A stretch of 64,000 nucleotides of DNA from Planctomycetota bacterium (lineage in GTDB: Bacteria; Planctomycetota; PUPC01; DSUN01), in the NCBI GenBank assembly GCA_035527715.1, contig DATKZY010000187.1, forward strand, positions 49,388 to 113,387. Direction: 5' to 3'. The position numbers and the translations under genes were made by a program. A model generated the notes under the pieces. It was not told the origin of the DNA. It made no database searches and was given only the letters and a program-made list of their open reading frames with translations. Numbering within the stretch: the stretch's first letter is position 1; the number at the start of each line of letters is the position of its first letter. Positions 18,024 to 59,696 of the stretch are shown in pieces.

Positions 18024-18079
18024 GCACAGCCGCCCCCGGCTGTGCTGCCACAGGCAAGGGCGCCTGTGCCACACGCGCG

Positions 18080-21136: not shown

Positions 21137-21853
21137 TTGGGCTCTGTGGGGCAGAAAGTTCGCTCGCACTTTCACGCCACGGCGCGCGAGTTCGACGCGA
21201 TCTACAGCGGCGAGAAGGGCGCCGCGGCGCGCTGGCTCGACCGCCTGCTGCGCTGGGACATGTACGAGCGCTTCCGCCGCACCGTGGGCGAGTGCTCCGA
21301 GCCCGGGCTGCGCGTGCTCGACGTCGGCTGCGGCTCCGGCCGCTTCAGCGTCGCCGTGGCCAGGGCGGGGGCGAGCGAGGTGCTGGGCCTCGACTTCGCC
21401 GAGAACATGCTCGAGATCGCTCGGCAGCTCGCGCAAAGGGAGGGGGTGGGCGAGCGCTGCCGCTTCCTCGCCGGCGACTTCATGGAACGCACGTTCGACC
21501 AGCCGTTCGACGTCACGCTGGCGATCGGGCTGTTCGACTACGTGGCGGACTGCCGCCCCTTCCTGCGGAAGATGCGCCGGGTGAGCCGCAGGAAGGTGGT
21601 CGCCACGTTCCCGCGGCGCTGGACGTGGCGGGCACCCGTCCGCAAGCTGCGCCTGGCCCTGTGCGGCTGCCCCGTCTTCTTCTTCACCCGCTCTGAGGTC
21701 GAGCGGCTTATGGCCGACGCGGGGTTTGCCCGCTTTGCCATCCAGCGCATCGGTAAGATCTACTTCGTGGTCGGCCACTGCGAGGGGTCACATCTTCATT
21801 TGGCACCTGGCCGCCCGGTGCGAAATGAAGATGTGACCCCGGGGGCAAGCTGA
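21137..21853 (+). CDS. Class I SAM-dependent methyltransferase. Its C-terminal 20 codons are supplied by a palindromic element.
   Basis: VLDVGCGSGRFSVAVA is motif I. The start is TTG 21137 or GTG 21146, after GGGAAGGGG. The last ~20 codons (GSHLHLAPGRPVRNEDVTPG) are encoded by palindromic element copy A1. Confidence 0.65.
   Translation: MGSVGQKVRSHFHATAREFDAIYSGEKGAAARWLDRLLRWDMYERFRRTVGECSEPGLRVLDVGCGSGRFSVAVARAGASEVLGLDFAENMLEIARQLAQREGVGERCRFLAGDFMERTFDQPFDVTLAIGLFDYVADCRPFLRKMRRVSRRKVVATFPRRWTWRAPVRKLRLALCGCPVFFFTRSEVERLMADAGFARFAIQRIGKIYFVVGHCEGSHLHLAPGRPVRNEDVTPGAS
21784..21840. mobile_element. Palindromic element family A, copy A1, about 57 bp: GGGGTCACATCTTCATTTGGCAC-11 nt-GTGCGAAATGAAGATGTGACCCC
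   Basis: The 23-nt arms are complementary at 22 of 23 positions. The element is in-frame at the 3' end of the methyltransferase CDS. Confidence 0.8.
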
Positions 21854-23289
21854 TGCGCGTGTGCGTCGTGGTCAACGGCTTGGGCGAGGAGCGGGCGGCG
21901 CTGGCTTCCTACGTGCTGCGAACGCTGCTCGGAACCATGGGCCTGTCCCTTTCTCCGCGCCGAGCGGACGGCCTTCTTGTGAGCTATGGGTGCCCCATCC
22001 CTGCCGATGGCGCAGGGGTCGAGATCGCGTGCGGCGACCCTCCGACGCCTGAGGAGGCAATTCAGGTGCACCGCCGCGTGACGAGCGAGGGGCCATCCCT
22101 CCTCGTGGCGGAGGGGCCGCGGGTGCGCGTGACGGCGGACCTCGTGGGCGCGGCGGGCCTCTGGCTCGCCGGCGGCGAGGAGCGAGCGGAGGGCTTCGAC
22201 GCATTCGGCCGCGCGTGCGGCGCCGCGAGCCCCCGCGCCGCTGCCGGCCTGCTTCGCACCCCCATGGTCCACGACCTGATGAGCCTGTTGTGCGCGGCGC
22301 TCTCCCGAGCGGCTGAGGCGGCCGGGCTTTCGCTCTCGCGTGTTCCCGCGTGGCCCGAGGGCCGCAAGTTCGCCGTCCTCCTGAGCCACGACGTGGACCT
22401 CTGGCGCAAGCGAACCGCTCGGCAGCTTGCCAAGGAGACGGTGAAGAGCCTCGCGCGCCCCTGGCGACTGCCCGGTGTCGCACGGGCCTTCTGCTGCGGG
22501 CCGGACCCGTGGAGCGATCTCGACGCCATCGCCGACCTCGAGGGACGCTACGGCATGCACTCGACCTTCTTCGCGCTGCCTGGCCGCCCGAACCGGGTAG
22601 TGGATGGCGTGGGGGTGGTGAACTCCTATGGCGCGAGGGCTGGCGCCGTCGGGGAGGCGTTGCGCCGCCTCGTCGCCCGCGGCTGGGAGGTGGGCCTCCA
22701 CGGCAGCTTCGACTCGTATCGGTCGACCGAGGCCCTCGCCGGCGAGCGGCGCGACGTGGCGGCGCTCCTGGGGGTCACATCTTCATTTGCCACTTCTCGG
22801 CAAGTGCGAAATGAAGATGTGACCCTCGTCACGGGCTGCCGCCAGCACTTCCTGCGCTTCGAGCGACCCGTCACATGGCGTGCCCAGGCCGAGGCCGGCC
22901 TGCGCTACGACGCGACCCTCGGCTACCACGACACCGACGGCTACCGCGCCGGCTTCTCGTTCCCCTTCCGGCCCTTCGCGGGCGAGGAACTGCTGCTCCT
23001 GGAGCTCCCGCTCGCCGTGATGGACGGGGCGCTCCTCGAGCGACAGGGGCTCGACGCCGAGGCCGCCTGGGGCCTCGTTGAGGGGTATCTCAAGCGCACG
23101 GAGGCGGACGGCGCGATGCTGGGCCTCCTGTGGCACAACAACTACTTCTGCGACCTGGACGCGCCCGGCTACCGAGGCGTCTACGAGCGAGCGCTCGGCT
23201 GGACCCGCGACCACGGCGGCTGGGGCGCCTCGGCGCGCGAGATTGCCGAGTGGTGGGAGCGCCGCGCCGCGCTCCTCCAGGAGGGCTGA
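21853..23289 (+). CDS. Polysaccharide deacetylase (NodB/CE4-like) family protein with an N-terminal extension
   Basis: 478 aa. FAVLLSHDVDLW, LHGSFDSYRS and GCRQHFLRFERP are deacetylase-like motifs. Element copy A2 is inserted in-frame, encoding GVTSSFATSRQVRNEDVTLV. Confidence 0.75.
   Translation: MRVCVVVNGLGEERAALASYVLRTLLGTMGLSLSPRRADGLLVSYGCPIPADGAGVEIACGDPPTPEEAIQVHRRVTSEGPSLLVAEGPRVRVTADLVGAAGLWLAGGEERAEGFDAFGRACGAASPRAAAGLLRTPMVHDLMSLLCAALSRAAEAAGLSLSRVPAWPEGRKFAVLLSHDVDLWRKRTARQLAKETVKSLARPWRLPGVARAFCCGPDPWSDLDAIADLEGRYGMHSTFFALPGRPNRVVDGVGVVNSYGARAGAVGEALRRLVARGWEVGLHGSFDSYRSTEALAGERRDVAALLGVTSSFATSRQVRNEDVTLVTGCRQHFLRFERPVTWRAQAEAGLRYDATLGYHDTDGYRAGFSFPFRPFAGEELLLLELPLAVMDGALLERQGLDAEAAWGLVEGYLKRTEADGAMLGLLWHNNYFCDLDAPGYRGVYERALGWTRDHGGWGASAREIAEWWERRAALLQEG
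22771..22825. mobile_element. Palindromic element family A, copy A2
   Basis: GGGGTCACATCTTCATTTGCCAC-10 nt-GTGCGAAATGAAGATGTGACCC, in-frame inside a deacetylase gene. Confidence 0.8.
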
Positions 23290-24929: not shown

Positions 24930-26128
24930 TGCCTACTCCGCGATCCGCAACCCGCGACCCGCAGTCCCGGTCAGGCCCTCTCCGTGTCCTCGTCCTCGCC
25001 GGTATCTTCCCCTACGAGGGGAACGAGACGTTCGGCCTGTCCACCTGTCGCCGCACCATCGAGCTGGCGCGGCTGTGCGACGTCAAGGTGCTGGCGCCGA
25101 CGTGGCGGCGGGGCCTCCCGGCCAGGGAGGCGTTGGCCGGCGTGGACGTGCTCCGCCCGCGGTGGCGCCGCGTGCCGAAGCTGGGCGTGCTTGTGGACGG
25201 CTTTCGCTACGCGGCGCGCGCGGCCAGGGCGATTGACGCCATCCGGCCCCCCTTCGACTTCGACCTGATAGATGCCCACTGGCTCTACCCCGACGCCTTC
25301 GCCGCCGTGCGCCTCGGGCGGCGGTTCGGCAGGCCGGTCGTGGTCACAGGCCGCGGCAGCGATGTGGACGAGTTTCTCGTCCGCTGGCCCGTGCGATACT
25401 TCGCCCGTGCGGCGCTTCGCGGGGCGGCCCAGATCGTTGCCCTCACGCGCCACCACGAGCAGAAGATGATCGAGGCCGGCGCCCCGGCCGGGCGAATCGC
25501 CGTGATCGCCAACGGCGTGGACACGGCGCTCTTCCGCCCGGGCGACCGCGGGGAGGCGCGGCGGGCGTTGGGCCTGCCGCCCGACGGTTTCGTGCTGTTC
25601 TCCGCCGGCGCACTCGTCGAGGACAAGGGCCACCACCACCTCATCCGGGGGCTTTCGCTCCTCGGCAGCGAGGCCCAGGCGAGCCTCTACATCGCTGGGC
25701 CAGGCTCGTACCGGGAGACGCTCCTGCGGCTCATCGAGTCGCTGAGCCTTCGGGACAGGGTCGCCCTCCTCGGGCGCGTCGAGCAGCGGCAGATGCCGCT
25801 CTGGTATCAGGCGGCGGACTTCTTCTGCTTCGGGAGCTATCACGAGGGCTGCCCAAACGTGGTTCTGGAGGCTGTCGCGTGCGGCACCCCGGTTGTCTCG
25901 ACCAACGTCGGTGGCATCCCCGACCTCGTCGAGGAGGGGCGCTCGGGCATTCTCTTCAAGCCGCGCTCCGACGAGGCATTCGCCTCCGCCCTTCGCACGG
26001 CGCTGGAGCGGCCCTGGGACCGGGCCGCGATTGCCGCCCTGGGCGCCCGACGCTCCTGGGCACACGTCGCCGCCGAATACCTGGCCCTCTTCGAGCGGCT
26101 CTTGGCAGGCAAGCATGGAGCAGTCTGA
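24926..26128 (+). CDS. GT4-family glycosyltransferase
   Basis: The C-terminus has FSAGALVEDKGHHHL...CFGSYHEGCPNVVLEAVACGTPVVST. It overlaps the neighbouring genes at both ends. Confidence 0.85.
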   Translation: MMPTPRSATRDPQSRSGPLRVLVLAGIFPYEGNETFGLSTCRRTIELARLCDVKVLAPTWRRGLPAREALAGVDVLRPRWRRVPKLGVLVDGFRYAARAARAIDAIRPPFDFDLIDAHWLYPDAFAAVRLGRRFGRPVVVTGRGSDVDEFLVRWPVRYFARAALRGAAQIVALTRHHEQKMIEAGAPAGRIAVIANGVDTALFRPGDRGEARRALGLPPDGFVLFSAGALVEDKGHHHLIRGLSLLGSEAQASLYIAGPGSYRETLLRLIESLSLRDRVALLGRVEQRQMPLWYQAADFFCFGSYHEGCPNVVLEAVACGTPVVSTNVGGIPDLVEEGRSGILFKPRSDEAFASALRTALERPWDRAAIAALGARRSWAHVAAEYLALFERLLAGKHGAV

Positions 26129-27221
26129 AATCGGAAATCGAAGAACCCTGCTTCTCCTCACAGTGGATACCGAGTCGAGCATGGCCGGCGTGCGCCCGCT
26201 GCCGCCCGAGGCGATGGTGTGGGGGTCACCTCTTCATTTCGCACATGGCGGCTATGTGCCAAATGAAGATGTGACCCCTGGCGGCACCTGGGGCATCGAG
26301 CGGCTGATGGACTGCTTCGACGCCCGCGGCCTCAAGGCCACGTTCTTCGTGAGCACGCTGGAGGAACTCCACCACGGTGAGGAGCACGTGAAACGCATTT
26401 GCTCGGCCGTTCTGGACCGCGGCCACGACGCGCAGCTCCACCTCCACCCCAACTGGTGGAAGGGCGATTTCGCCCGCAAACGGCTCACCGACTACTCGCT
26501 CGAGGAGCAGACCGAGCTCGTGCGTCTCGCCAAGGAGGCATATCGCCGCGCGTGCGGCTCGGAGCCCGTAGCGCATCGCGCCGGCGGGCTGCTCGTGAAT
26601 GCCGACACGTTCCGCGCCCTGGCGGCGAATGGGATTCCGATGGATTCCTCGGTCGCCATCGGCCACATCCCCTATGAGCTTGGCGAAGGGGTGACGCCGC
26701 CCAACGTGCCCCGACGGCTCGGCTCCGTCATCGAGGTGCCCGTCACTACCTTTGCCCAGATGCGCCTCGGCCCCTGGGCGCCGCGGCGCCACTTCGACCT
26801 GAATGCCGATTCCCTCTCGGAGCTGAAGCTCGTGGTGGACCGCGCCGTGCAGCAAGGCGCGGCGGCGGCGTGCCTGCTGATGCACAGTTTCTCGCTCATT
26901 GCTCGGAACCGCGAGGGGACGGAGTTCAGGCCCGCCGAAGCCGAGTGCCGCAAACTCGAGCGATTCCTCGACTATATTGCCACGCGTGGGGATGTGGAGG
27001 TCGTGACCGTTCGCGAGGTGGCCCGCCGCATCGAGGGCGAGCCCGCGCTGCTCGCGGGGCCGGACCTCGAGGCGACCGCAGGCGTCTTCCGCACGTGGCG
27101 GCGGAGCTGCGAACGCTTCGGCGCGGGCTGGAAGAGCAAGGCATTCGCGCTGGGCCTCCCCCTCGGGCTGGCGGCCCTTGCGGCGCTGGTGATAGGAGCC
27201 ATCTGGTGGCTGACGTCCTGA
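26115..27221 (+). CDS. Polysaccharide deacetylase-like protein (divergent NodB-like LTVDTE type). Palindromic element A3 is inserted in-frame.
   Basis: It begins MEQSEIGNRRTLLLLTVDTESS and contains HLHPNWW plus a C-terminal TM. ATG 26115 overlaps the previous gene by 14 nt, and ATG 26181 is an alternative start. A heptamer array at 26124..26144 spans the junction. Confidence 0.6.
   Translation: MEQSEIGNRRTLLLLTVDTESSMAGVRPLPPEAMVWGSPLHFAHGGYVPNEDVTPGGTWGIERLMDCFDARGLKATFFVSTLEELHHGEEHVKRICSAVLDRGHDAQLHLHPNWWKGDFARKRLTDYSLEEQTELVRLAKEAYRRACGSEPVAHRAGGLLVNADTFRALAANGIPMDSSVAIGHIPYELGEGVTPPNVPRRLGSVIEVPVTTFAQMRLGPWAPRRHFDLNADSLSELKLVVDRAVQQGAAAACLLMHSFSLIARNREGTEFRPAEAECRKLERFLDYIATRGDVEVVTVREVARRIEGEPALLAGPDLEATAGVFRTWRRSCERFGAGWKSKAFALGLPLGLAALAALVIGAIWWLTS
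26124..26144. repeat. Heptanucleotide array TCTGAAA TCGGAAA TCGAAGA overlapping the TGA stop of the GT4 gene
   Basis: It is period-7 and belongs to the same family as the 28251 and 59637 arrays. Confidence 0.75.
26222..26278. mobile_element. Palindromic element family A, copy A3, in inverted orientation relative to A1/A4
   Basis: GGGGTCACCTCTTCATTTCGCAC-11 nt-GTGCCAAATGAAGATGTGACCCC. It is in-frame and encodes GSPLHFAHGGYVPNEDVTPG. Confidence 0.8.
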
Positions 27222-28285
27222 AGCTCGCCGCGCGGCAGGCCGTGGCGTTCCTGGCGGTGCGCTCGCGGCTGTGGCCCGTCGTGCCGAAGGGCCGCGCCCT
27301 CGTGCTTCGCTACCACCGGGTCGCCCGTGCCGGCGCGCCGCCCGTGCCGCTCGCGGTGCCTGCGGCGGAGTTCGAGGCCCAGTTGCGCTTTCTCGCCGCG
27401 CGCGCTCACGCGATGACCGCGGGCGAGATCGCCGCCGCAGCGGCCGGCGGCCAGCCCTTGCCCCCCAACGCCGTCGCTATCACCTTCGACGACGGCTACG
27501 AGGACAACTGCTCGCAGGCCCTCCCGCTCCTCCAGCGCTACGGCCTGCGAGCCACCTTCTTCGTCACCGCAGGCTGGATCGGCACCGAGAACGTCCTGTG
27601 GTGGGACCGGCTCCACGACTACATCCGCCAGGCGGCGGCGCTGGCCGCGCGGCCCATAGACTACCAGGACCTCCCGAAGCCGCTGGTCGCCGCACTGGCG
27701 GCCGCGGACCTCCGCACCGGCGCCGGCGCCGCGCGGCTCGAGCGCGACCTCGCCGCGGCGCTCGGCGGCCTGGCCCTCACGCCCGAGGAGACCGATCTCC
27801 TCGTCGAGCGCGTCGCCTCCGCGCTGGGGTCCGACGTGGCCGACCCCGAGCCCTACCGCCCCATGACCTGGGACCAGGTGCGCGAACTGCACCAGGCGGG
27901 CATGGAGATCGGCTCGCACACCATGTCGCATGGCCGCCTGGTCCACGTGCCTGCCGAGCGCGCCTACGAGGAGCTGGAACGGTCAAAGCAGGCTATCGAG
28001 CGGGAGTTGGGTGCCCCCGTCTCGCTCCTCGCCTATCCTGCCGGGAGCCACAACCAGGACGTCGTGGACCTCGCGGTGGAGACGGGCTACGAGGCCGCCT
28101 TCACGACGGCCAGCGGCCCCGTGGCCCCGGGCGACGACCTGTTCCGCCTCCGCCGCATCGGCGTCTGGGCGGGCGGCTATCGTGGGGCGCTCAACAGCTT
28201 TTCTGATTCCGTCTTTGGCCTCCAGCTCGGACGCTTGGCGCGTCAGCCAAGCGGAAATCGGAAACCGGAAACCGGCAATGCCTAG
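27206..28285 (+). CDS. Polysaccharide deacetylase (NodB/CE4) family protein
   Basis: [19 protein letters not shown] and LAYPAGSHN are present. It starts at GTG 27206, overlapping the previous gene by 16 nt, so the start is uncertain. Confidence 0.75.
28251..28278. repeat. Heptanucleotide array GCGGAAA TCGGAAA CCGGAAA CCGGCAA ending exactly on the A of the ATG at 28278
   Basis: Four units. It encodes the C-terminal tail ([11 protein letters not shown]) of the upstream gene and forms the immediate 5' context of the next start codon. Confidence 0.85.
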
Positions 28286-32231: not shown

Positions 32232-33173
32232 ATGGCCGAGCCGCAGATGCCCTTCGTTTCGGTCGTCGTCGCGGCCTACAACTCGCGCGACACGATGGCC
32301 CGCTGTATCGAGGCCCTCCAGGGGCTCGACTACCCGAGCTTCGAGATCATCGTGGTGGACAACGCTTCGACCGACGGTACGCGGGACATTGCGGCGCGCT
32401 ATCCGGTCACGGTGCTCGACGAGTCGCGCCGCGGCTGGCCCGCCGCCCGCAACCGCGCCTGGCACTGGTCGAAGGCGCCCTTCGTGGCGAACATTGACGC
32501 CGATTGCTTCGCCGAGCCGTCGTGGCTGCGCGAGCTGGTCGCCGCCCTCCTGGCCGACCCTGGGGCCGGCTGCGCCGTCGGCCGCACGAAGGTCGAGCCG
32601 GGGAAGACCCTCGCCGAGCAGCACTATGCGGCGTGCGACCCGTTCAACATCGAGAAGTACGTGCAAGGCACGGCGCGGGCCTTCGGGCGGGCCTGCCCCT
32701 GGGGCGGGGGGAACAACTGCTTTCGCCGCGAGGTGCTCGAGGCCGTGGGCGGCTACGACGCCGAAACCTACACCTCGGGCGCCGACCGCGAGTTCCACCG
32801 CCGCTTCGAGGAGGCCACGGGCCTCCGCACCGTCTACGCCCCCAAGGCCGTCATCTGGCACGCCGCGCGCGGCTCCGTGCGCGAGCTGTTCCGCAACGCC
32901 GCGAAGTACGCCTCCGACGCCGTCCTCCACGCCCGGTTCGACCCCGGCGTGCGCGACCACCTGCGCGGCTTCGTCCGCCGCAACCTTGGCTTCATCGCCC
33001 GCAACGCCGCGGGCCTCGTGTGGCGGGCCGCGAAGTTCCTGATCGGGCGCGAGACGCGGCTGGGCGTATCACGCCCCTTCTTCTATAGCGTGCAGGAGTC
33101 GGGCTCGATCTGGGGCTATCTCAAGGGCCGGCGCCGCGTCAGGAGGATGCAGAGGAACCTCCCGCAGGTTTGA
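32232..33173 (+). CDS. GT2-family glycosyltransferase
   Basis: VSVVVAAYNS...IIVVDNASTDGT...DADCF. The stop codon TGA forms the loop of a perfect 13-bp hairpin. Confidence 0.8.
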   Translation: MAEPQMPFVSVVVAAYNSRDTMARCIEALQGLDYPSFEIIVVDNASTDGTRDIAARYPVTVLDESRRGWPAARNRAWHWSKAPFVANIDADCFAEPSWLRELVAALLADPGAGCAVGRTKVEPGKTLAEQHYAACDPFNIEKYVQGTARAFGRACPWGGGNNCFRREVLEAVGGYDAETYTSGADREFHRRFEEATGLRTVYAPKAVIWHAARGSVRELFRNAAKYASDAVLHARFDPGVRDHLRGFVRRNLGFIARNAAGLVWRAAKFLIGRETRLGVSRPFFYSVQESGSIWGYLKGRRRVRRMQRNLPQV

Positions 33174-33186
33174 AACCTGCGGGAGG
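33158..33186. repeat. Palindromic element family B: 29-nt perfect hairpin CCTCCCGCAGGTT-tga-AACCTGCGGGAGG whose loop is the stop codon of the GT2 gene
   Basis: A 13-bp perfect stem. A second copy at 61262..61290 has a compensatory base-pair change. There is no U-tract, so it is not a classical intrinsic terminator. Confidence 0.75.
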
Positions 33187-33208
33187 CTGAGACAAGGGGT
33201 GAGCCAAC

Positions 33209-34420
33209 ATGCCGGACGCGCCCGCAGTCGTCCTGTATATGAGCTATCTCGGCCTCGGGCTCGTGCGGGCCTTGGGGCGCGAGGGCGTGCGCGTCTTCGC
33301 CCTCGACCCGCACCCCGACGCCTTGGGCATGAACTCCCGCTACTGCCAGCCCGTCGTCACCCCCGACATCAAGCAGGACGAGGCGCGCTACCTGGAGTTC
33401 CTGCTGGACTTCGGCCGCCGCCTGCCCGCGAAGGCCGTGCTCTATCCCACCGGCGATCCGACGGTGGTGCTCCTGTCGCGCGAGCGTGAGGTCCTGTCGC
33501 AGTACTACCATTTCGTCATGCCGGACCACGCGACCGTGCTGAAGCTGCTGACGAAGGACGGGCTGGACGCCGTGGCCCGCGAGCACGGCATCCCGGCCCC
33601 CCGCACGGCCATCCCCGCCGACCGCGCGGCGGTGGAGGCCGCGGCGCGCGACCTCCAGTTCCCCGTCCTTCTCAAGCCCGCGGAGAGCCACGCCTGGAAG
33701 GCGAAGGCCATCGTGGACCTCATTGGCGTCGGCACCAAGGTCATCCCGTGCTCCAGTCCAGAGGAGTTGCTCGTCCAGTACGACCGCATCGCCGCCCACA
33801 ACCCCAACGTGATTGTCCAGGAACTCGTCCCCGGCGAGGACGAGCGGCTGGTGTACTTCTGCTTCTACGTCGGGCGGGACGGCGAGCCACTGGGCGTCTT
33901 CGCGGGGCGGAAGCGCCGCGTGCTGCCGCCCGGCCTCGGCTCGGCCAGCTTCGCCGAGACCATGGCCGACCCCGCGCTCACCGACGTGGCGCTGCGGCTC
34001 CTCCGCGCCGTGGACTATCGCGGACTCGGCGGCGTCGAGTTCAAGCTCGACCCGCGCGACAATACGTACAAGCTCATCGAGTTCAACGTGCGGTTCGGCC
34101 TCTGGGACGCGTTGGGCGCCCGCTGCGGGGTGAACCTGGCGCACCTCGCCTGGCGCGATGCGCTCGGGCTGCCCGTCGAGCCGCAGGTCCGCTGCCGCAC
34201 GGGCGTCAAGTGGGTCTCGATGCAGCGCGACCTGTCGGCATTCCGGCTCTACCGTCGCCAGGGCAAGCTGACCACGTGGCGCTGGCTCCGCTCGCTCGCC
34301 GGCGAGAAGATGTGGGCCGTCCTGGCGTGGGACGACCTGGCCCCGTTCTTGTCGAGCGCCCCAGGCTACGTGTGGGGACTCCTCGCGCCGCGGCTGGGAA
34401 TCGGGCGGGGCAGGGTGTAG
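33209..34420 (+). CDS. ATP-grasp domain protein (carbamoyl-phosphate-synthase/D-Ala-D-Ala-ligase-like fold)
   Basis: 403 aa. The patterns VLLKPAESHAWKAK...VIVQELVPGED...GVEFKLDPRDNTYKLIEFNVRFG resemble the ATP-grasp B and C subdomains. Confidence 0.7.
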   Translation: MPDAPAVVLYMSYLGLGLVRALGREGVRVFALDPHPDALGMNSRYCQPVVTPDIKQDEARYLEFLLDFGRRLPAKAVLYPTGDPTVVLLSREREVLSQYYHFVMPDHATVLKLLTKDGLDAVAREHGIPAPRTAIPADRAAVEAAARDLQFPVLLKPAESHAWKAKAIVDLIGVGTKVIPCSSPEELLVQYDRIAAHNPNVIVQELVPGEDERLVYFCFYVGRDGEPLGVFAGRKRRVLPPGLGSASFAETMADPALTDVALRLLRAVDYRGLGGVEFKLDPRDNTYKLIEFNVRFGLWDALGARCGVNLAHLAWRDALGLPVEPQVRCRTGVKWVSMQRDLSAFRLYRRQGKLTTWRWLRSLAGEKMWAVLAWDDLAPFLSSAPGYVWGLLAPRLGIGRGRV

Positions 34421-34434
34421 AATGGGAGAAGGCA

Positions 34435-34560
34435 GTGCGAAATGTAAAATGCAAAAGGCAAAGTGCAAAATCCAGAACACACCTGGGGCTAGGGGAGTAA
34501 GCGACATCGGGGCTCACCATTTTGCCTTTTGCACTTTGCCTTCTGCATTTTGCATTGGGA
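34435..34560. promoter_or_regulatory. AT-rich long imperfect inverted repeat immediately upstream of the B12-radical-SAM gene. It could be an operator/promoter or an RNA hairpin.
   Basis: The arms are gtgcgaaatgtaaaatgcaaaaggcaaagtgcaaaatcc and cattttgccttttgcactttgccttctgcattttgcattggga, separated by about 45 nt. It is the only strongly AT-rich patch in a 70% GC locus. Confidence 0.4.
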
Positions 34561-34570
34561 TTTCTCCGCG

Positions 34571-35953
34571 ATGAAGGTTGCGCTGATCCAGCCGCCAATG
34601 GATTCGGACTACCCGCCGCTGAGCCTCGGCTCGCTGGCGGCGTATCTGGCGTCGAAGGGGCACACGCCGCGCGTCTTCGACCTCCAGGTGCCGGCGCAGC
34701 GGGCCGAATGGCCGCGGGCGTTGGCGGAGTTCGCGCCCCAGCTCGTCGGCGTCACGGCGATGACCCCCACCATCGCCGCCGCGGCCGAGGTCGGTCGCAC
34801 CTGCAAGCAGGCCCTCCCCGACGCCACACTCGTCCTCGGCGGCTATCACGTGAGCTTCCTGCCCGAGGAGACGATGCGGCGCTACCCTGCCTTCGACGTG
34901 GGGGTGATCGGCGAGGGCGAGGTGACGCTGCACGAGCTGGTCGAGGCACTGGACGCGGGCCGCGAGTTGGACCAGGTGAGCGGGCTGATCCTCCGCCGTG
35001 GCGACGGCCTGGTGACGACCCCGCCGCGCGCGCGCATCCAGGACCTGGACGCCCTGCCCTGGCCCCACGAGCACTACGACCTCGGCCACTACCTGTGGTA
35101 CGGCGGCTACACGGGGCGCTGGACGTTCAAGTGCGCGAGCGCCATCGTCTCGCGCGGCTGCCCGTTTCGCTGCCGCTTTTGCGCCTCGCAGCGCTTCTGG
35201 TCGAAGCGTTACCTCGTCGGCTCGCCCGAGCACGTGGTGGACGAGATGCGGTGGCTGGCCCGCCACGGCGCGCGGAGCGTGTACTTCCGCGACAGCACGT
35301 TCAACGTCAAGAGGAAATGGCTCCGCGAGTTCTGCGCGGCGAAGCGGCGGGCGGGCCTCCGCATGCGCTGGCTGTGCAACAGCCGCGTGGACACGCTGGA
35401 CGAGGAGCAGCTCACGCTGATGGCCGAGGCGGGCCTCGAGGCCCTCTACTTCGGCGTCGAGAGCGGCAGCCAGCGCATCCTCGATTACTACAACAAAGGC
35501 GTCACCGTCGAGCAGACCCGCGAGGCATTCCGCCTCTGCCACAAGTACCGCGTCGCCACGGCGGCCTACTTCATGATCGGCGCGCCCATCGAGACGCGGG
35601 CCGACATCGAGGAGAGCCGCAAGCTCGCCCGCGAGCTGCGGGCGAAGTACACCTACTGGTTCATCTACACGCCGCTGCCGGGCGCCCCGCTTTACGACGA
35701 CTTCGTCGAGCGGGGCTACAAGCCCGACTTCGAGCACTTCGTCTTCAGCCGTGCGACGATTCCCGTGGGCGACCTGGCCCCCGAGGAGCTGGAGGCCCTC
35801 CACCACCAGCTCGTCGCCGAGTTCCGCCGCAAGACCACGCGGGGCGATGTCTGGCGGCGACGCTGGGAGATTCTCCGGTCCGTCCGCTCCTGGCGCGACG
35901 TGCGCCACCTGGGCCGCAAGCTCGCGCGGCGAATGGGGCTAGGTGGCCAGTAG
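34571..35953 (+). CDS. B12-binding domain radical SAM protein (class B radical SAM)
   Basis: The N-terminal B12-binding-like region is MKVALIQPP...VGVTAMT. SRGCPFRCRFC is the CxxxCxxC motif. The track ORF start at 34529 lies inside the AT-rich repeat, so the ATG at 34571 is preferred. Confidence 0.85.
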   Translation: MKVALIQPPMDSDYPPLSLGSLAAYLASKGHTPRVFDLQVPAQRAEWPRALAEFAPQLVGVTAMTPTIAAAAEVGRTCKQALPDATLVLGGYHVSFLPEETMRRYPAFDVGVIGEGEVTLHELVEALDAGRELDQVSGLILRRGDGLVTTPPRARIQDLDALPWPHEHYDLGHYLWYGGYTGRWTFKCASAIVSRGCPFRCRFCASQRFWSKRYLVGSPEHVVDEMRWLARHGARSVYFRDSTFNVKRKWLREFCAAKRRAGLRMRWLCNSRVDTLDEEQLTLMAEAGLEALYFGVESGSQRILDYYNKGVTVEQTREAFRLCHKYRVATAAYFMIGAPIETRADIEESRKLARELRAKYTYWFIYTPLPGAPLYDDFVERGYKPDFEHFVFSRATIPVGDLAPEELEALHHQLVAEFRRKTTRGDVWRRRWEILRSVRSWRDVRHLGRKLARRMGLGGQ

Positions 35954-36166
35954 TGGGCAAGTCAAGATGCTCACCCCCTCCCGTCCGGAGTGGTCTGAGC
36001 GCCTTGACTCAGCTCCACAACGAGGGTTCAGGAGAGCCACATGTCATTGCTGTGTATATGGTTGTGGCTCCGTCCGCGGCGCCGGTCGTCGGCCCGCCAA
36101 GATGTTCACCCCCTATTGCGCGCGCGTGAGCATCTTGAACACCTTGAGTTCGAGGTCTGACCCCGA

Positions 36167-37525
36167 ATGCGCGTGACGCTGGTGCAACCCGACACGGGCG
36201 GGAGCTATCCGCCGCTGAGCCTGGGCTACCTGGCGGCCTATGCCGCCGCGCGGGGCCACGAGGCGCGGATTCTCGACCTCCAGGTGCCCGCGCAGCGCGA
36301 GCGCTGGGAAGAGCTTCTCGTCGAGGCTCGGCCCGACCTCGTCGGCTTCACGGCCCTCACGCCGAGCATTCGCCAGGCGGGTGAGCTGGCCGCCCGCGCC
36401 CGCGAGCTTCTCCCCAGCGCGAAGCTCATCGTCGGCGGATTTCACGCCTCGATGGAGCCTGAACAGACGCTTCGCGACTATCCCGCCTTCGACTACCTGT
36501 GCATTGGCGAAGGCGAGGAAACGCTGGCCGAGCTGTGCGGGCGGCTCCAGGACGGCCAGTCGCCGGAAGGCATCGCGGGCCTCGCGTGGCGGAAGGGCGA
36601 GGCCGTCGAGCTCGGGCCGCCGCGGGGCCGGATCGCCGACCTCGATCTTCTGCCGAGCCCCCATGGCTTCTACGGCCTCGAGCACTACCTCGAATCGGGC
36701 AGTTTCACCTACCAGTATGGCTATCGCTGCGCGTCGGTCATCGCGTCGCGGGGTTGCCCGTTTCGCTGCCGGTTCTGCTCGATTCCGGGCAAGTACGTTC
36801 ATCAGTCGGTCGAGCGCCTGGCCGACGAGATTGCGGAGCTGCTTCGGCGGGGGGCCGACGGCGTGTTCTTCCGCGACAGCACGTTCACGATCCGGCGCGA
36901 CTGGGTGCTGGCCTTCTGCGAGGCCGTGCGCCAGCGGCGGATGCGGTTCCACTGGATCGCGAACGCGCGGCCGGACCTCGTGGACGACGAGCTGCTGGCG
37001 GCGATGAAGCGCGCGGGCTGCTTCGCCCTCTGCTACGGCGTCGAGAGCGGCCGCGACAGCGTGCTCGACTACTATGGCAAGGACCACACGGTCGAGGACA
37101 CCCGCCGCGCCGTGGCCGCGACGAAGCGCGCGGGCATTCGTGTCATCGCCTACTTCATGCTCGGCGCGCCCATCGAGACGCGGGCCGACATCGAGGCGAG
37201 CCACCAGTTCGCCCGCGAGCTGGGCGCCGAGCGCACGATCTGGAAGATCTTCGCCCCGCTCCCCGGCTGCGAGATCTACAACGAGCTGAAGGCCAAAGGC
37301 GTGAAGCTGGACTTCGATGCGATTCGCACCGACCGGGCCTCGTATCCGCTGGCAGACATGACCGAGGCGGAGATCGAGCAGCGGTTCCGCGAGCTACAGG
37401 CAGAGTTCGCCTACACCCGCGGCAGCCGCCTCCGCGTCTTCTGGCGTCAGCTTCGCCGCGTCCGCTCGCCCCGCGACGCCTGGCGCCTCGCCCGCCGGGT
37501 GGCAGCCAGGCTGCTTCGTGGGTAG
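36167..37525 (+). CDS. B12-binding domain radical SAM protein, tandem paralog of the 34571..35953 gene
   Basis: MRVTLVQPD...SRGCPFRCRFCSIPGKY. The domain order matches the upstream paralog and the two are about 50% identical by eye. Confidence 0.85.
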   Translation: MRVTLVQPDTGGSYPPLSLGYLAAYAAARGHEARILDLQVPAQRERWEELLVEARPDLVGFTALTPSIRQAGELAARARELLPSAKLIVGGFHASMEPEQTLRDYPAFDYLCIGEGEETLAELCGRLQDGQSPEGIAGLAWRKGEAVELGPPRGRIADLDLLPSPHGFYGLEHYLESGSFTYQYGYRCASVIASRGCPFRCRFCSIPGKYVHQSVERLADEIAELLRRGADGVFFRDSTFTIRRDWVLAFCEAVRQRRMRFHWIANARPDLVDDELLAAMKRAGCFALCYGVESGRDSVLDYYGKDHTVEDTRRAVAATKRAGIRVIAYFMLGAPIETRADIEASHQFARELGAERTIWKIFAPLPGCEIYNELKAKGVKLDFDAIRTDRASYPLADMTEAEIEQRFRELQAEFAYTRGSRLRVFWRQLRRVRSPRDAWRLARRVAARLLRG

Positions 37526-37630
37526 GATGGTTGGATGAATGGATGACTGGATGATTGTCAGAGGAGCCTTGCCGCCTTCCCATTCATCCATCCATCCACC
37601 CATCCATTCATCCTCCTCCAGGAGGCGCAT

Positions 37631-38647
37631 GTGAGCCGCTGGGCCAGGCAACTCGTCGTCACCGTGTCCGTCGAGCCCGACGATCCGTCGGTCGTGGGCC
37701 GGTCGGGAGCGTATCGCTCACTCGACGGGCTTGAGCGGTTCCACGAGCTGTGCCGACGCTACGGCGTGCGGCCGACGTATCTCGCCACGTACTCGGCGGC
37801 GGGGGAGACCCGGTGCGTGGACCTCTTCCGCTCCTGCGGCGACGAGGCCGAGGTCGGGGCGCACCTGCACCCCGAGGAGGTGCCGCCCATCGCCGAGGGC
37901 GAGCGTGGCAACCACACGCTGCGCCCGAGCGCGGTCGAGCCCGGCCGCCTGCGGGAAAAGCTGGCCAACCTCGTCGAGCGCGTGGCGGAGGCGGCGGGGC
38001 GGCGGCCCACCGCGTATCGCGCCGGCTTCTTCGACCTCACGCCCAGCCAGGTCGTCGCGCTTGTTGGGCTGGGGATCGAAGCCGACTCCAGCCTTGGCCC
38101 CCTGGAAAAGGTCGGCGGCAAGTACCCGTTTCTTCGCGTTCCCTTTGAGCCATACGTCGCTGACCCCGCGAACCCGTGCACAGAGGCTCACGCGTCACGC
38201 GTCACGCGTCACGCATCACTCGTCGAGGTTCCCCTCACCAGCGTCTTCCGCCGTCCTTTTCCCAGGCGGCTTTTTGGTGTATACTTCGGGATGCCGGGTG
38301 TCGTGCGAGGGGCGCTGCGCGCGCTCGGCGCCGCCGAGGTGCTGCGGTTCCGCCCGGCAGTGGCCTCCGCCGACGACTTGCTGGCCGTGTGCCGGCGCAC
38401 GGAGCGGCTGGGCGTGCCCGCGGTCATGACCATTCACTCGAACGAGTTGTGGCCGGGCACGAGCGCGGGGTCACATCTTCATTTGGCACCTGGCGGCGAA
38501 GTGCGAAATGAAGATGTGACCCCCGAGGCGGCCTGTGCCGCCTACTTCGAGCGCCTCGAGCGGGTGTTCGCGCATTGCCAGGCGGACGGCTGGGCGAGCC
38601 GCACGCTCACGGAGATCGCCCGCGCAACCCGGGGGAATGCGGGATGA
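37631..38647 (+). CDS. Polysaccharide deacetylase-like protein (LTVDTE-type paralog of 26115..27221). It carries palindromic element A4 and an in-frame GTCACGC heptamer array.
   Basis: VVTVSVEPDD...HLHPEE. Element A4 encodes GSHLHLAPGGEVRNEDVTPE. The array at 38187..38214 encodes AHASRVTRHAS. Confidence 0.65.
   Translation: MSRWARQLVVTVSVEPDDPSVVGRSGAYRSLDGLERFHELCRRYGVRPTYLATYSAAGETRCVDLFRSCGDEAEVGAHLHPEEVPPIAEGERGNHTLRPSAVEPGRLREKLANLVERVAEAAGRRPTAYRAGFFDLTPSQVVALVGLGIEADSSLGPLEKVGGKYPFLRVPFEPYVADPANPCTEAHASRVTRHASLVEVPLTSVFRRPFPRRLFGVYFGMPGVVRGALRALGAAEVLRFRPAVASADDLLAVCRRTERLGVPAVMTIHSNELWPGTSAGSHLHLAPGGEVRNEDVTPEAACAAYFERLERVFAHCQADGWASRTLTEIARATRGNAG
38187..38214. repeat. Heptanucleotide array CTCACGC GTCACGC GTCACGC ATCACTC, in-frame in a CDS
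   Basis: The same GTCACGC array recurs at 63815..63842 inside the last gene. Confidence 0.8.
38467..38523. mobile_element. Palindromic element family A, copy A4
   Basis: GGGGTCACATCTTCATTTGGCAC-11 nt-GTGCGAAATGAAGATGTGACCCC. It is nearly identical to A1. Confidence 0.8.
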
Positions 38648-39058: not shown

Positions 39059-42000
39059 ATGCCGATGCCCCAGGTGCACTTCGCGGTCGGCATGGGAGCG
39101 GCCTCGCTGCTGGGCGTGCCGCTGCTCGTGCTGCGCCGGCGCTGGCTCCTGTGGCTGCCGCTCGTCATGACCGCGTGCGGCGCGCTGGCGCTGGTGCCCG
39201 ACGTGGTAGCGCGGGGCAGGGACTTCCTGCCCGGGCCCGCGGCCGAGCGGGGGCGCACGCACACCCCCGCGGCCAACGTGTTCTTCCTGCACACGTGGCT
39301 CGACCGGCAGCCGGCCCTCTACGCGCCGGCCGTGGCCGACCTGGCGTTCCAGGCCGTGGCGCTGATGTACCTGGCCTCCGCCATCGGCTATGCGGCCTTC
39401 CTCCGCTGGGGGCTCCCTCGGATGGCCGAAGCGGGGGAGGCGTTAGCGCGGCTGCGGCGCGAGACGGCGAGCTATCGCCCCGTGGCCGCCCTGCTCGGCC
39501 TGCTGCCGCTCGTGGTGGCCGGCGCGGCGGCGGTGTGGACGCTGTGGCCCAAACGCCCCGCGGGCGCGCCCGCCCAGGGGCAGGAGGCGCTCGACCCCGC
39601 GCAGTGGGCGCAACTTGTCTCGCGGCGCCTCGGCGTCGCGGTCGGCCAGCGCCTCGGCGTCGTCCATTCGACATGGGACAGCCATGGGGCCTGGCTGTGC
39701 GGCGACCTGGGGGCGAGGGTGTCGCCCGACGCGCCGGGCGCCGCCGAGCTCGTCGAGCGCGCGAAGGCCAATGGCTGCGATTTCGTGGCGTTGCTGGACG
39801 GCGCGAGCCCTGACGACCTTGCCGCGGCGCGACAGAAGCACCCCGACATGGCCCTCCTGGCGGGCCTGGTGTGGGACGCGCCGACGAGGCGGGGGGCCGA
39901 GCGAGCCATCGTGCTGGTGCCGCCGCAAGCGCGCGAGGCCGCGGTGCTGGCCGACTTCCGCCGGCAGTTCGCCGGCCCGGGCGGATCGGCAGAGGATGCC
40001 CTGCGATGGCTCGACGCCCACGGCGCCTCGCCCAAGGCACAGCCCGTGGTCCTGGCGGCACAGGCTTCCAGCCTGTGGGCCACAGGCAAGATGCCTGTGC
40101 CACCGGGCAGCGGGGAGGGCTGGCCGGATCTCTTCTCGTGGCGGCGGACGAATGGGCTGTTCATCGGCTTCCTCGGCCTTCCGGGCGCCGAACGCCTGTC
40201 CGCCCGCGAGGCCCGCAGCCAGTGGGACCCCCGCGTGGCCGCCGTGGGGGGCATGTGGGACAGGTTCCTGGACGGGGGCTTCCGGCTCTGGGGCGCGGCC
40301 GCGGCATCCGGCTTCCAGGACCCTGCCCGGCAGTTCTGGCCGGGCGAGTTCGCCCGCACCCACGTGTGGTGCCGCGGGCGCGCCGCGGAGGACGTGTTGG
40401 GCGGCCTCCGGGACGGGTGCTTCTGGGCCGTCGAGGGCGCGGTCGTGCGCGCGCTGGACTTCGGGGTCAACGCCCCGACGCTCGAGCGGCCCGCGCGGAT
40501 GGGCGAGGTGGCCCGCGTGGCGCCGGGCGACGAGGTGACCGTGGAGCTGGCCCTGGACGTGCCGCCCACCGACTTCGCCGGGCGCCCGAGCCAGCTCGAC
40601 GAGGTGGAGCTGGTCTCGAACTTCGGCGGCGAGGCCGAGGTCGTCGCGCGGTTCCGCAACGTGCACGACGTGCGCCGCCTCGAGCACCGCCTGCCGCCGG
40701 CCCAGGACGCCAACGGCGGCCTCGGCTTCTACGTGCGCGCCCGAGGCTCCCGCCGCGTGGATGCGGGAGCGCGGCTGTTCTTCTACACGAACCCCATCCG
40801 CGTCCTCGTGCGGCCGGGGCTGGCGCCGCCGGCGCCGCCGGGCGCGGCCCCCGTCCGCGTGGCCTCGGCGCACCGCCCCGTCGAGCCCGCGCCGCCGAAG
40901 CCCAAGACGGCGACGCCCGTAGCGCCGCCGCCCGAGGACGACGTGCGGGCGCGGCTCGCCGCCGTCGGCCTGCCGGCCGGCGTGAGCCCCGTGTGCGTCG
41001 AAACGTTTCAGAAGCCGCCCGGGCGCCAGTGGCTTGGCGCCCACGTGAGCATCATCGGCGACCGCGGCCCGGCCCTGGGCGACGAGGAGCTGCGCGTCGA
41101 GCTCCTCCAGCGCATCCCCCTTGGCGAGGCCACCCGACTGTTCTTCCGGTGCTACGCCTTGGACTGTGCCCGGCTGACGCTTGTCGCGCGCCCCGGCGGC
41201 GGAGCGGCCGCCTGCCAGGCCGTCCGCGAGCTCCCCGAGCGTCAGTGGGTCGAGTTCGACCTCTCGCTCGGCGACGACTTCCTGCCCCTGCGCGGGACCT
41301 CGGGCCGCCTGGGGCCGCCGGGCGAGGTCCAGGCCCTCGAGTGGGCTGGCGCCCGCCTCGGGCCGCTCTCGCGCTTCTACGTGACCGATGTCGTCGTCTA
41401 CGAGCCCACGCCTGCCAGCCGCCAGGGGCTGGCCCTGAAGCAAGCGGTGGACCTGGACGCGGCGCTGCGCGAGACGGCGGGCCGAGGGGCGACCGCAGCC
41501 ATGCAGCAACGGGCCCAGGCCGCCCTGGACCGCCTCGCCGCCTGGCGCGCGCGGCTCGACCCCAGACGAGGGCCACCGACGCCCGACGAACTGGCCGCCG
41601 TCCGCCGCGACCTGGCCGAGTTGGCCGCCGAGAGCCGTTGTCTTGGCTGGCAGGCCGCCATGACTCGCACCTTCCGCCTCGGCGACCCCAGGTTCGCCGT
41701 CACCCTCGCCGCCCCCGGCCAGCGCATCTCGGCGCGCAACCCCGCGCTCAACCCGTCGCCACAGATCGCCCGCTCGTGGGACCTGGCCGCCGCCGGCGCC
41801 GAGGCCGAGAGCGTCCAGATCGTCGTCATCGCCCTCTGGGACAGGCTCGAGGCCGTCGCCGTCGGCGTCTCGCCGTTCGTCCCTGTGGCTCGGGATGGGG
41901 CCGAGGGCCCGCCCGGCGGCGAGCGGGCCGCCACGCTGCCGACCTCGCTTGCCCTCGTGGGCGAGGCGATGGTGCGCCCAGGCCCCCTCCTCGCCCCCGA

Positions 42001-45343: not shown

Positions 45344-46258
45344 GTGAATGCGATGAGCTGCGACCTCGAGGAGTACTTCCAGGTGCAGTGCTGCGACGGG
45401 GTGATCGCGCCCGAGGCGTGGGACACCATGCCTTCGCGCCTGGAGCCGAGCACGGAACGGGTGCTGGCGCTGCTCGACGAGGCAGGCGTGAAAGCGACCT
45501 TTTTCGTCCTGGGCTGGAACGCCGAGCGGCACCCCGACCTGGTGCGGCGCATCGCGGCTGCGGGCCACGAGATCGCCTCGCACGGCTACGCGCACAAGAT
45601 GATCCCCGACCAGAGGCCCGAGGAGTTCCGGGCCGACGTGTGCCGGGCCAAAGCGCTGCTGGAGGACCTCACGGGCCGGCCCGTGCTGGGCTACCGGGCG
45701 CCGACCTTCTCGATCACCGAGCGCTCGCGGTGGGCCATCGCCATCCTGGCCGAGGCCGGCTACCGCTACGATTCGAGCGTCTTCCCCATCCGCCACGACC
45801 GCTACGGCATCCCCGACGCCCCGCGATTCCTGCATGAGCTGAACGGGGCGGAGTGCGGAATGCGGGGTGCGGAATGCGGGGTGCGGAATGCGGAAGGGAC
45901 GGACAGGCCGCACCTCATTGAGTTCCCGCCCACGACTCTGCGGGTGCTGGGCACGAACGTGCCGGTGGCGGGCGGCGGCTACCTGCGGCTCCTTCCCGCG
46001 CGGCTGATTCTGGCCGCGCTGCGCCGCGTGAACCGCCTGGGGCACCCGGCCATCGTGTACTTTCATCCCTGGGAGCTGGACCCCGAGGCGCCGCGGCTGC
46101 CGCTGCGGGGCCTGCGCCGCTTCCGCCACTACGTGGGCCTTGCCCGCGCGGCCGCCAAGTTGCGGCTCCTGCTGCGCGGCCTCGCCTTCACCACTGCCGC
46201 CACGGTCGTCGGGCACTGGGTGGCCGCGCACCACAAGGGGGAAACAGCGAATGGGTAG
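45344..46258 (+). CDS. Exosortase-system-associated polysaccharide deacetylase (TIGR03006-like, DUF3473 + NodB). It carries an in-frame 49-nt heptamer array.
   Basis: VNAMSCDLEEYFQV...ATFFVLGW...ASHGYAHK...LGYRAPTFS matches the XrtA/PEP-CTERM-locus deacetylase family. An alternative start is ATG 45352. The array at 45848..45896 encodes GAECGMRGAECGVRNAEG. Confidence 0.8.
   Translation: MNAMSCDLEEYFQVQCCDGVIAPEAWDTMPSRLEPSTERVLALLDEAGVKATFFVLGWNAERHPDLVRRIAAAGHEIASHGYAHKMIPDQRPEEFRADVCRAKALLEDLTGRPVLGYRAPTFSITERSRWAIAILAEAGYRYDSSVFPIRHDRYGIPDAPRFLHELNGAECGMRGAECGVRNAEGTDRPHLIEFPPTTLRVLGTNVPVAGGGYLRLLPARLILAALRRVNRLGHPAIVYFHPWELDPEAPRLPLRGLRRFRHYVGLARAAAKLRLLLRGLAFTTAATVVGHWVAAHHKGETANG
45848..45896. 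repeat. Heptanucleotide array of 7 units: GCGGAGT GCGGAAT GCGGGGT GCGGAAT GCGGGGT GCGGAAT GCGGAAG, in-frame in a CDS
   Basis: It also reads as a 14-mer (GTGCGGAATGCGGG) repeated three times. Confidence 0.85.
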
Positions 46259-59657: not shown

Positions 59658-59696
59658 TTTTCCAAGCCCCCCTCCCCCACTGCCCCCCGCCCCGCG

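Follow-up and report, generated by a model that had tools for sequence, protein, structure and literature searches.

An AT-rich foldback of heptamer arrays upstream of a B12-binding radical SAM gene in a Planctomycetota polysaccharide locus

Does an AT-rich inverted repeat located immediately upstream of an enzyme gene control that gene, or is it one copy of a more widespread repeat? The question is raised by a stretch of 64,000 nucleotides from a Planctomycetota bacterium (assembly GCA_035527715.1, contig DATKZY010000187.1, positions 49,388 to 113,387; referred to below as the window), in which such a repeat, at positions 34436–34557, precedes the first of two genes for B12-binding radical S-adenosylmethionine (SAM) enzymes. 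A reading made from the sequence alone had suggested that the repeat binds a dimeric regulator or forms a large RNA hairpin that occludes the start region, either of which would give riboregulator-like control of the radical SAM pair. We confirmed the inverted repeat, but control dedicated to this gene pair was not borne out: several relatives lack the element at this junction or have something else in its place, and repeats of its class are present at other junctions and inside genes. It is very likely one of a lineage-wide class of foldback simple-sequence repeats, and a regulatory role dedicated to the radical SAM genes is improbable. The annotation of a riboregulator or operator for the pair, tempting but wrong, was removed.

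Architecture of the inverted repeat

The spacer between the stop codon of an ATP-grasp gene and the ATG of the first radical SAM gene measures 150 nt and is filled by the hairpin element. The TAG stop codon (34418–34420) is located 15 nt upstream of the left arm. The features of this region are as follows.

33209–34420, + strand: ATP-grasp gene, the 5' neighbor (Pfam CPSase_L_D2 / ATPgrasp_Ter; JGI gene call; GC content at third codon positions, GC3, of 0.94)
34436–34477, + strand: left, purine-rich arm, TGCGAAA TGTAAAA TGCAAAA GGCAAAG TGCAAAA TCCAGAA, about five heptamers, 36% GC
34478–34517, + strand: spacer or loop of 40 nt, 65% GC, with small internal stems; its sequence differs in the homologous element of the related locus L012
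34518–34557, + strand: right, pyrimidine-rich arm, CATTTTG CCTTTTG CACTTTG CCTTCTG CATTTTG CATTG, the complement of the left arm in register
34558–34573, + strand: unpaired tail with a weak Shine-Dalgarno (SD)-like GGGA and the ATG (34571) of the first B12-binding radical SAM gene
34571–35953, + strand: first B12-binding radical SAM gene, with its ATG at 34571

The inverted repeat pairs 34441–34477 with 34520–34556, its 37-nt arms being 86% complementary and separated by 42 nt, and no other inverted repeat in the window with arms up to 120 nt apart is as long. Tandem Repeats Finder identified each arm as an array of period 7, with 5.1 copies of TGCAAAA on the left and 5.6 copies of CATTTTG on the right; the internal direct repeats of TTTGC(A/C) that had been noticed previously correspond to these arrays. 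The 21-mer TGCAAAAGGCAAAGTGCAAAA was confined to the two arms, and any match appeared in none of 100 shuffles. The arms pair in register, with a variant GGCAAAG unit at corresponding positions in both, and we therefore regard them as copies of one another rather than as independent arrays. The sequence of the element was the same in two independent metagenome assemblies. The dip in GC content reported for this site was also evident, the left and right arms containing 36% and 40% GC, respectively, in a window of 70% GC, although the value for the 140 nt upstream of the ATG was 49% rather than 45%.

The predicted RNA fold of positions 34421–34590 had an energy of −68.8 kcal/mol (z = −4.8), and none of 200 shuffles gave an equally good fold. 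The corresponding DNA fold of 34433–34560 had an energy of −33.9 kcal/mol (z = −5.9). On the basis of these models, formation of a large hairpin by this region is very probable, whether in RNA or in single-stranded DNA. The stem ends at 34556–34557, 14 nt upstream of the ATG, and the large stem leaves both GGGA (34558–34561) and the ATG at 34571 unpaired. Folding of this region thus upheld the large hairpin that had been proposed but not the occlusion of the start. A similar motif had also been placed at 59178–59200; such a motif does exist, but it lies at 59165–59178 and comprises only two heptamer units, GAAATGC GAAATGG.

Turnover of the repeat among related loci

We compared the junction upstream of the radical SAM gene among related loci, designated by L numbers; the genomes closest to the window are metagenome-assembled genomes of Planctomycetota. 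Junctions within the operon are written as pairs of genes (g8/g9 and so on). In L014 and L015 the gene upstream of the radical SAM orthologue is not the ATP-grasp gene, and these loci were compared for the junction upstream of the radical SAM gene rather than for g8/g9. The contents of this junction were as follows.

Window: TGCAAAA foldback
L012: homologous TGCAAAA arrays, six units on the left and 2.5 on the right (truncated arm), around an unrelated spacer
L003: foldback of 16-nt GGCAAAATGATTGAGC units that retains GGCAAAA and has ATTTTGCCTTCT in common with the window
L011: direct array of five GGCAAAA units, without an inverted partner
L015: foldback of CGTGACG heptamers
L004 and L014: unrelated GC-rich hairpin CCTCCCG(C/A)AGGT(T/G)TGAAACCT(G/T)CGGGAGG
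L008, L010, L013, L016 and L017: neither array nor hairpin found

In a neighbor-joining tree of the radical SAM protein, the window grouped with L003, L004, L011 and L012, and four of these five clade members (all but L004) have kept some GCAAAA-type array at the junction. The distribution fits a single origin of the array that would have been followed by restructuring and by loss in L004. Wherever both arms are present they co-vary, as heptamers in the window and as 16-mers in L003; arm complementarity has thus been maintained, given that both arms changed together between lineages. The SD-like motif located 8–12 nt before the start codon, outside the element, is conserved among orthologues. 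The hairpin and its sequence lack the conservation expected of a riboregulator or an operator. A protein that recognizes the repeats, if one binds, would be a general factor for the repeat class and not a regulator of two genes.

Period-7 arrays of at least 2.9 copies numbered 13 in the window, compared with 0.57 in dinucleotide shuffles (maximum, 2), an enrichment of about 20-fold, and more than 10 distinct unit sequences were present within the 64 kb. The layout is consistent: four to six units of 7, 8, 9 or 16 nt form a single array or an inverted pair around a spacer of 20–55 nt. Further members of the class at or near gene junctions, and one inside a gene of the operon, are listed below.

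37526–37613, + strand: second foldback, in which about 25 nt separate four GGATGNNT octamers from four to five inverted units of the CATCC type
17976–18021, + strand: direct, unpaired heptamer array AATGCGG/ATTGCGG at a gene junction
1393–1419, 8249–8277, 24945–24963 and 28252–28275: other arrays at or beside gene ends
7861–7901: array just inside the C-terminal end of an open reading frame (ORF)
38188–38224, + strand: in-frame array of five TCACGCG units in operon gene g11
L003, g0/g1, g2/g3 and g9/g10: foldbacks of GGATGAAT octamers
L003, g6/g7: foldback of CGTAATC heptamers
L003, g7/g8 and g8/g9: foldbacks of 16-mers GG(C/T)AAAATGATTG(A/C)GC
L003, g11/g12: foldback of GGAAGGCA/GGAATGCA units
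L003, g12/g13: direct CGAAACT array

The foldback at 37526–37613 occupies the junction downstream of the second radical SAM gene, with its left arm abutting a TAG stop codon. In the syntenic operon of L003 (85% protein identity), foldbacks of this class occupy eight of 14 junctions, and the same architecture built from other units was also found in L004, L008, L011, L012, L014 and L015. The g9/g10 junction illustrates the variety. Its spacer is just 10 nt in L010 and L013; L003 and L011 contain an orthologous GGATGAAT foldback, L012 a 9-mer foldback, L014 a CGTGACG foldback with a REP-like hairpin (REP, repetitive extragenic palindromic) nested in its loop, L008 and L015 other hairpins, and the window and L004 an element of 215–257 nt. 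The long intercistronic spacers of the operon are therefore attributable to inserted repeat elements. L010 and L013 are as near to the window (80–81% protein identity) as is the array-rich L003, and no period-7 or period-8 array was found in 13 kb of their loci, so that proliferation of the repeats is specific to lineages.

The class also extends into coding sequences. At the g11 site that contains TCACGCG in the window, L004 has five GAAATCG units, L003 five GCAATCG units, L011 four CAGAAAT units and L008 a complete foldback (6446–6530), and L010 and L013 have nothing. In the radical SAM gene of L003, L004, L011 and L012, in-frame arrays or an abutting foldback occur at one site and add 11–23 residues. 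The one-base difference between GAAATCG and GCAATCG is uniform across all units of the array, a homogenization characteristic of arrays that evolve in concert through slippage. A small number of unit families reappear at unrelated loci, in different genomes and on viral contigs. The class thus exists, is strongly enriched, draws on a few recurring unit families and turns over between relatives with arm complementarity kept; it colonizes gene junctions and tolerated protein loops. Given that it inserts into enzymes, gene-specific regulation cannot explain the class.

The element of 215–257 nt between the two radical SAM genes (window 35954–36166, L004 11417–11670; absent from L003, L010 and L013) deserves a separate description. 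In the window, its direct repeats CAAGATG(C/T)TCACCCCC lie near 35962 and 36108 and the inverted copy, GTGAGCATCTTG, near 36137, and the alternative pairings of the first or the second direct repeat with the inverted copy resemble the layout of an attenuator. Two compensatory changes distinguish the window from L004, GCTCAC/GTGAGC versus GGCCAC/GTGGCC.

The GC-rich hairpin found upstream of the radical SAM gene in L004 and L014 is a different element with copies at 33156–33187 of the window, at 9955–9990 of L004, and both before and after the radical SAM gene of L014. At the end of g7 in the window and of g8 in L004, the upstream gene takes its TGA stop codon from the hairpin loop. Copies differ by compensatory changes in the stem, and in L014 a heptamer foldback contains the hairpin within its loop.

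Origin and function of the element

The explanation that we favor, with moderate confidence, is that the element is a foldback pair of heptamer arrays, the planctomycetal counterpart of the short tandemly repeated repetitive (STRR) sequences of cyanobacteria, which is co-transcribed with its operon and has at most a generic effect on expression. Its arrays would be generated and homogenized by replication slippage, and its arms would be held complementary through hairpin-templated copying of DNA, that is, quasi-palindrome correction. Transcribed with the operon, the element would fold back in the mRNA and loop out about 120 nt; the upstream stop codon would in this way be kept near the downstream ribosome-binding site, and the insertion would be tolerated because the two stay close. 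The duplex of 30–37 bp might act as a barrier to 3'-exonucleases, as a substrate of RNase III or as a modifier of translational coupling. Sense and antisense strands showed no asymmetry in folding energy or in G·U pairs among 18 elements (G·U, 36 versus 45), and we argue from this equality that the complementarity is a property of the DNA. No repeat array differed in copy number between two assemblies of the source population (99.9% identical over 20 kb), a comparison that speaks neither for nor against hypervariability.

Several regularities weigh against this explanation. The 47 period-7 arrays detected in 178 kb have a median of 4.6 units (32 nt) and none exceeds 5.9 units, and such a bound at about 32–35 nt is not predicted by free slippage. 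In all nine independent intergenic spaced foldbacks the purine-rich arm comes first in the direction of the gene, a polarity that a purely neutral DNA palindrome does not predict. Most other operon junctions have no alignable sequence common to different genomes, and at g11/g12 the arms in L003, L004 and L011 are almost invariant around a variable spacer, which hints at a constraint on the sequence or at a factor acting in trans. Persistence of a GCAAAA-type array in most of the radical SAM clade is compatible with some local function, and co-transcription and RNA-level effects are parts of the explanation that we infer. Bounded length, shared families and polarity therefore leave room for a trans-acting process. 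In a stronger version, these Planctomycetota and the viruses sharing their families would have an active, hitherto undescribed process that seeds and maintains cassettes of about 32–35 nt made of 7–9-nt units from a small set of families. The cassettes, single or in foldback pairs, would be placed at gene junctions and in frame within protein loops, with purine-first intergenic foldbacks serving as modular RNA hairpins that set relative cistron expression. We consider this version unlikely. If it is true, the cassettes would represent a novel kind of bacterial micro-element, served by its own trans-acting enzyme or binding protein, and not passive products of slippage.

Searches aimed at specific functions bear on the remaining alternatives. 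Rfam gave no match at the gathering threshold over the whole window, and with E values up to 1 it gave only subthreshold matches to generic microRNA-precursor hairpins at 34300–37700. No sigma-70-type promoter (−35 and −10 boxes spaced by 16–18 nt) was found at 33000–38000, a scan outside which planctomycetal promoter types fall, and the only terminator-like site in this interval, at 33062, is not at the element, whose stem is followed by no U-tract. Contiguous 7-bp units of the kind expected for a heptad-iteron operator are present, whereas the scans yielded neither a promoter nor, among the window proteins examined, a regulator gene. Two further candidates were discarded. A decoy for CsrA-type proteins that bind GGA motifs was considered for the GGATGAAT arrays, but GGA is missing from the other unit families and the stem buries the motifs; an apparent conserved loop motif, CAGAAC or GAGAAG, proved to be the purine-rich stem continuing into the spacer and not a discrete motif.

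A non-autonomous mobile element, resembling a miniature inverted-repeat transposable element (MITE) or a REPIN and comparable with eukaryotic foldback elements, might be moved whole by a transposase encoded elsewhere, with the arms as recognition sites. This possibility overlaps the slippage explanation, from which it differs only in how copies arise, and we judge it unlikely. The uniform length of arrays and their presence or absence at otherwise conserved junctions would suit such movement, as would the recurrence of GGATGNNT foldbacks with four units per arm at g10/g11 of the window, at g0/g1, g2/g3 and g9/g10 of L003 and on the viral contig L165, together with two homologous GG(C/T)AAAATGATTG copies on either side of one L003 gene. 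The REP-like hairpin of L014, which at g9/g10 is nested in a foldback loop and upstream of the radical SAM gene adjoins what is left of a left array, points the same way. The element is nevertheless flanked by no target-site duplication or symmetric direct repeat, spacers differ among copies of a unit family with no recent identical copies and no shared internal sequence of the MITE kind, and only a single TGCAAAA-type element is present in 64 kb. The window proteins scanned included no transposase or RAYT, and unit substitutions homogenized at one site (GAAATCG versus GCAATCG) fit slippage in situ. Another alternative is a cis-regulatory site that serves the radical SAM genes specifically, consisting either of heptads bound cooperatively by a repeat-reading protein, in the way that 7-bp heptads are bound by ribbon-helix-helix repressors, or of an RNA hairpin sensed by a factor. 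It has in its favor that sense-strand GCAAAA-type repeats lie 5' of the radical SAM orthologue in the window, L012, L011 and L003, and that the AT-rich island is directly 5' of the gene. There is also a precedent in Nostoc, in which deletion of heptamer repeats at recO altered promoter output in reporter assays (bioRxiv 10.1101/2022.06.06.494920). Such a site is very unlikely here all the same, given that the element is absent or replaced in seven lineages (L004, L008, L010, L013, L014, L016 and L017), that more than 10 unit sequences in 64 kb would require as many regulators, and that the class also lies within coding sequences. The hairpin itself is not conserved, with L011 having only a direct array and L012 a truncated arm; the SD-like motif and ATG are uncovered by the stem, and the scan of 33000–38000 revealed no promoter-like site.

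Two further alternatives concern the spacer as a transcribed or translated unit. Transcription punctuation, whether by a promoter that drives the radical SAM genes or by a signal that terminates or attenuates transcription of the genes upstream, would account for a very stable hairpin straight after a stop codon and for an AT-rich island in a genome of 70% GC, and a role in pausing or terminating transcription has been suggested for STRR hairpins (PMC2670836). We regard it as highly improbable: the stem lacks a U-tract, the scan described above (weak evidence, given the promoter types outside it) placed no terminator- or sigma-70-like site at the element, and a single operon is indicated by co-oriented genes and by overlapping genes or short spacers in relatives. 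The ORF at 34449–34574 (41 amino acids, MQKAKCKIQNTPGARGVSDIGAHHFAFCTLPSAFCIGISPR) covers the whole element and ends in a TGA that overlaps the radical SAM ATG (ATGA), the elements of L003 and L012 are likewise spanned by ORFs in the corresponding frame, and ATP-grasp, SPASM and B12-radical SAM proteins are typical peptide-modifying enzymes; the ORF might encode a small protein, possibly a peptide on which the ATP-grasp and radical SAM enzymes act (the precursor of a ribosomally synthesized and post-translationally modified peptide). Its GC3 is only 0.49, compared with 0.8–0.95 for window genes, and its openness is due only to the heptamers, which are free of stop codons whichever frame is read. 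In L003 and L012 the central part of the peptide bears no relation to that of the window, the ORF is absent from most orthologous loci and it matched no family, and the locus is of the exosortase/XrtA polysaccharide type (glycosyltransferases, flippase, Wzy and deacetylases). A coding role is hardly credible, and we rejected it on the grounds of codon usage, poor conservation and type of locus.

Among described repeats, heptanucleotides are the commonest long simple-sequence repeats in prokaryotes, and polymerase slippage has been proposed as their source (PMC4679880, summarizing earlier work). The TAACTGA repeats of Beggiatoaceae, cyanobacteria and Bacteroidetes resemble the present arrays in that two to six heptamers lie just 5' of start codons, their presence varies among relatives and slippage has been proposed, but one heptamer dominates there, with 169 direct sets versus one indirect set, whereas many families and frequent inverted pairs were found here (PMC4679880). 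The closest likeness is to STRR sequences, for which hairpins of 7-bp repeats between hupS and hupL of cyanobacteria were proposed, without proof, to affect transcript stability or translational coupling (PMC2670836). Like those of Nostoc and Anabaena, our arrays consist of tandem 7-nt units (at least three copies, as determined with Tandem Repeats Finder), belong to a few dispersed families located mainly between genes (in the partial genomes available, 178 kb of window and relatives), and include inverted arrays capable, according to predicted folds, of forming an intercistronic hairpin within an operon. They differ in phylum (Planctomycetota, 70% GC) and in their unrelated units, and the element is therefore an analogue, not a homologue, of STRR sequences; they also include 8-, 9- and 16-nt units, regular arms of four to six units, and in-frame foldbacks in genes. 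The kind is thus already known, as STRR-like heptamer hairpins, and the element is a new instance of it in Planctomycetota. Among the papers available to a literature search for heptamer repeats in Planctomycetes, none linked the two.

REP and REPIN sequences and MITEs such as the Correia element of Neisseria are extragenic operon hairpins of about 100 nt that are co-transcribed and have a known or proposed effect on mRNA stability or are cut by RNase III. The element shares with them an extragenic, hairpin-forming inverted repeat of about 100 nt inside an operon, but its arms are tandem arrays of 7–8-nt units rather than a single conserved palindrome, and its spacers are not conserved; no GTAG or CGTC tag was found at the ends of the arms, and the single TGCAAAA copy in the window likewise sets it apart from REP and REPIN sequences, of which a genome typically has hundreds of near-identical palindromes of 20–40 nt, often with such a tag at one end. 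Eukaryotic foldback elements have inverted arms of short tandem repeats around a variable center, are of kilobase scale and sometimes include transposase genes, and the likeness to them is architectural only. Rickettsia palindromic elements are small repeats tolerated as in-frame insertions in protein genes. They differ in sequence, size and host, and they resemble the heptamer arrays inside genes and a palindrome of about 57 nt at 38467–38523 rather than the intergenic copy at 34436–34557.

The element is thereby placed in a repeat class with unsolved origin and function, even in the cyanobacteria in which it was first described. Abundance in a distant GC-rich phylum, quick turnover at fixed sites, arm complementarity, in-frame tolerance and families on viral contigs suggest a process at the level of the lineage. 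The features of the class that merit attention are its several unit lengths, bounded arms, in-frame foldbacks, intergenic polarity and families common to viral contigs. In practice, such elements lengthen intergenic spacers and give rise to spurious small ORFs, shifted start calls and low-complexity protein insertions in metagenome-assembled genomes.

Locus context and further repeats

The region from position 1 to about 51,000 of the window is a single co-oriented polysaccharide locus of the exosortase/XrtA type. It encodes a flippase, a Wzy-like polymerase, GT2, GT4 and PMT_2 glycosyltransferases, several deacetylases, one of which scored above the curated cut-off for the XrtA-system deacetylase, FemAB-like proteins and a priming sugar transferase. 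The exosortase gene is given below.

46623–48191: exosortase EpsH, within the polysaccharide locus

The genes around the element are co-oriented and relatives have overlapping genes or very short spacers; we therefore consider the genes to form one operon. In L004 and L008, fewer than 50 nt separate the radical SAM gene from the gene upstream. Surrounded by the glycosyltransferases and deacetylases of this locus, the ATP-grasp, SPASM and B12-radical SAM enzymes probably act on a glycan or lipid and not on a peptide. The two assemblies of the source population, L001 and L002 (99.9% identity over 20 kb), differ by a 15-nt in-frame insertion or deletion in the deacetylase gene g2 (window position of about 27237) and by a CAG-to-TAG nonsense change (about 41330) that splits a gene for 1607 amino acids in L002.

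In-frame heptamer arrays were located at 9802–9833, 38188–38224, 45848–45895, 63039–63063 and 63815–63840 of the window. Insertions within genes add 7–23 hydrophilic residues, and those of L008 and of the radical SAM orthologue of L011 (3430–3499) are whole foldbacks. Viral contigs from IMG/VR with 61–65% GC carry the shared unit families at a density of at least one array per kilobase. L165 contains a GGATGATT foldback as well as TCACGCG and CACTCCG arrays (2222–2292, 6742–6766 and 8083–8115), L019 has arrays at 1015–1112, 1434–1522 and 5161–5244, and L020 has 15 arrays in 12.9 kb; a CGATTTC/CAATCGG foldback is also among the families of the viral contigs. These contigs may represent either phages of these hosts that are subject to the same process or DNA of the host or its prophages. 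A scan of viral contigs with the loose pattern GCAAAANGCAAANNGCAAAA returned at least 120 stretches and yielded no information that could be used.

The 8-mer GCGAAATG occurs eight times in the window, compared with 1.5 expected. The excess stems mainly from another repeat family that contains the 8-mer, to which four of the copies belong. This separate family is a palindromic element of about 57 nt with the sequence GGGGTCACATCTTCATTT(G/C)GCAC...GTGC(G/C)AAATGAAGATGTGACCCC and copies at 21784–21840, 22772–22825, 26222–26278 and 38467–38523. The last copy coincides with an in-frame insertion of about 14 residues in g11, an insertion that is missing from L003 and L004, and the palindrome has GTGCGAAATG in common with the left edge of the 34436–34557 element.

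Hairpins of a GGCACAGGC...GCCTGTGCC family were found at 18020–18092 and at 40051–40107, the latter inside the ORF of 1607 amino acids, and a related hairpin is present at the g9/g10 junction of L008. The region 59130–59720 is large and noncoding. Inverted GGGAATG/GGCAGGG arrays (59281–59314 and about 59525–59570) surround about 210 nt of it, within which a hairpin with 29-nt arms, GGAGTGCGGCGGCTTGACGCCGCTTTCCA and TGGAACGCGGCATCGAGATGCCGCACTCC, spans 59396–59488; a C-rich tract follows at 59666–59706.

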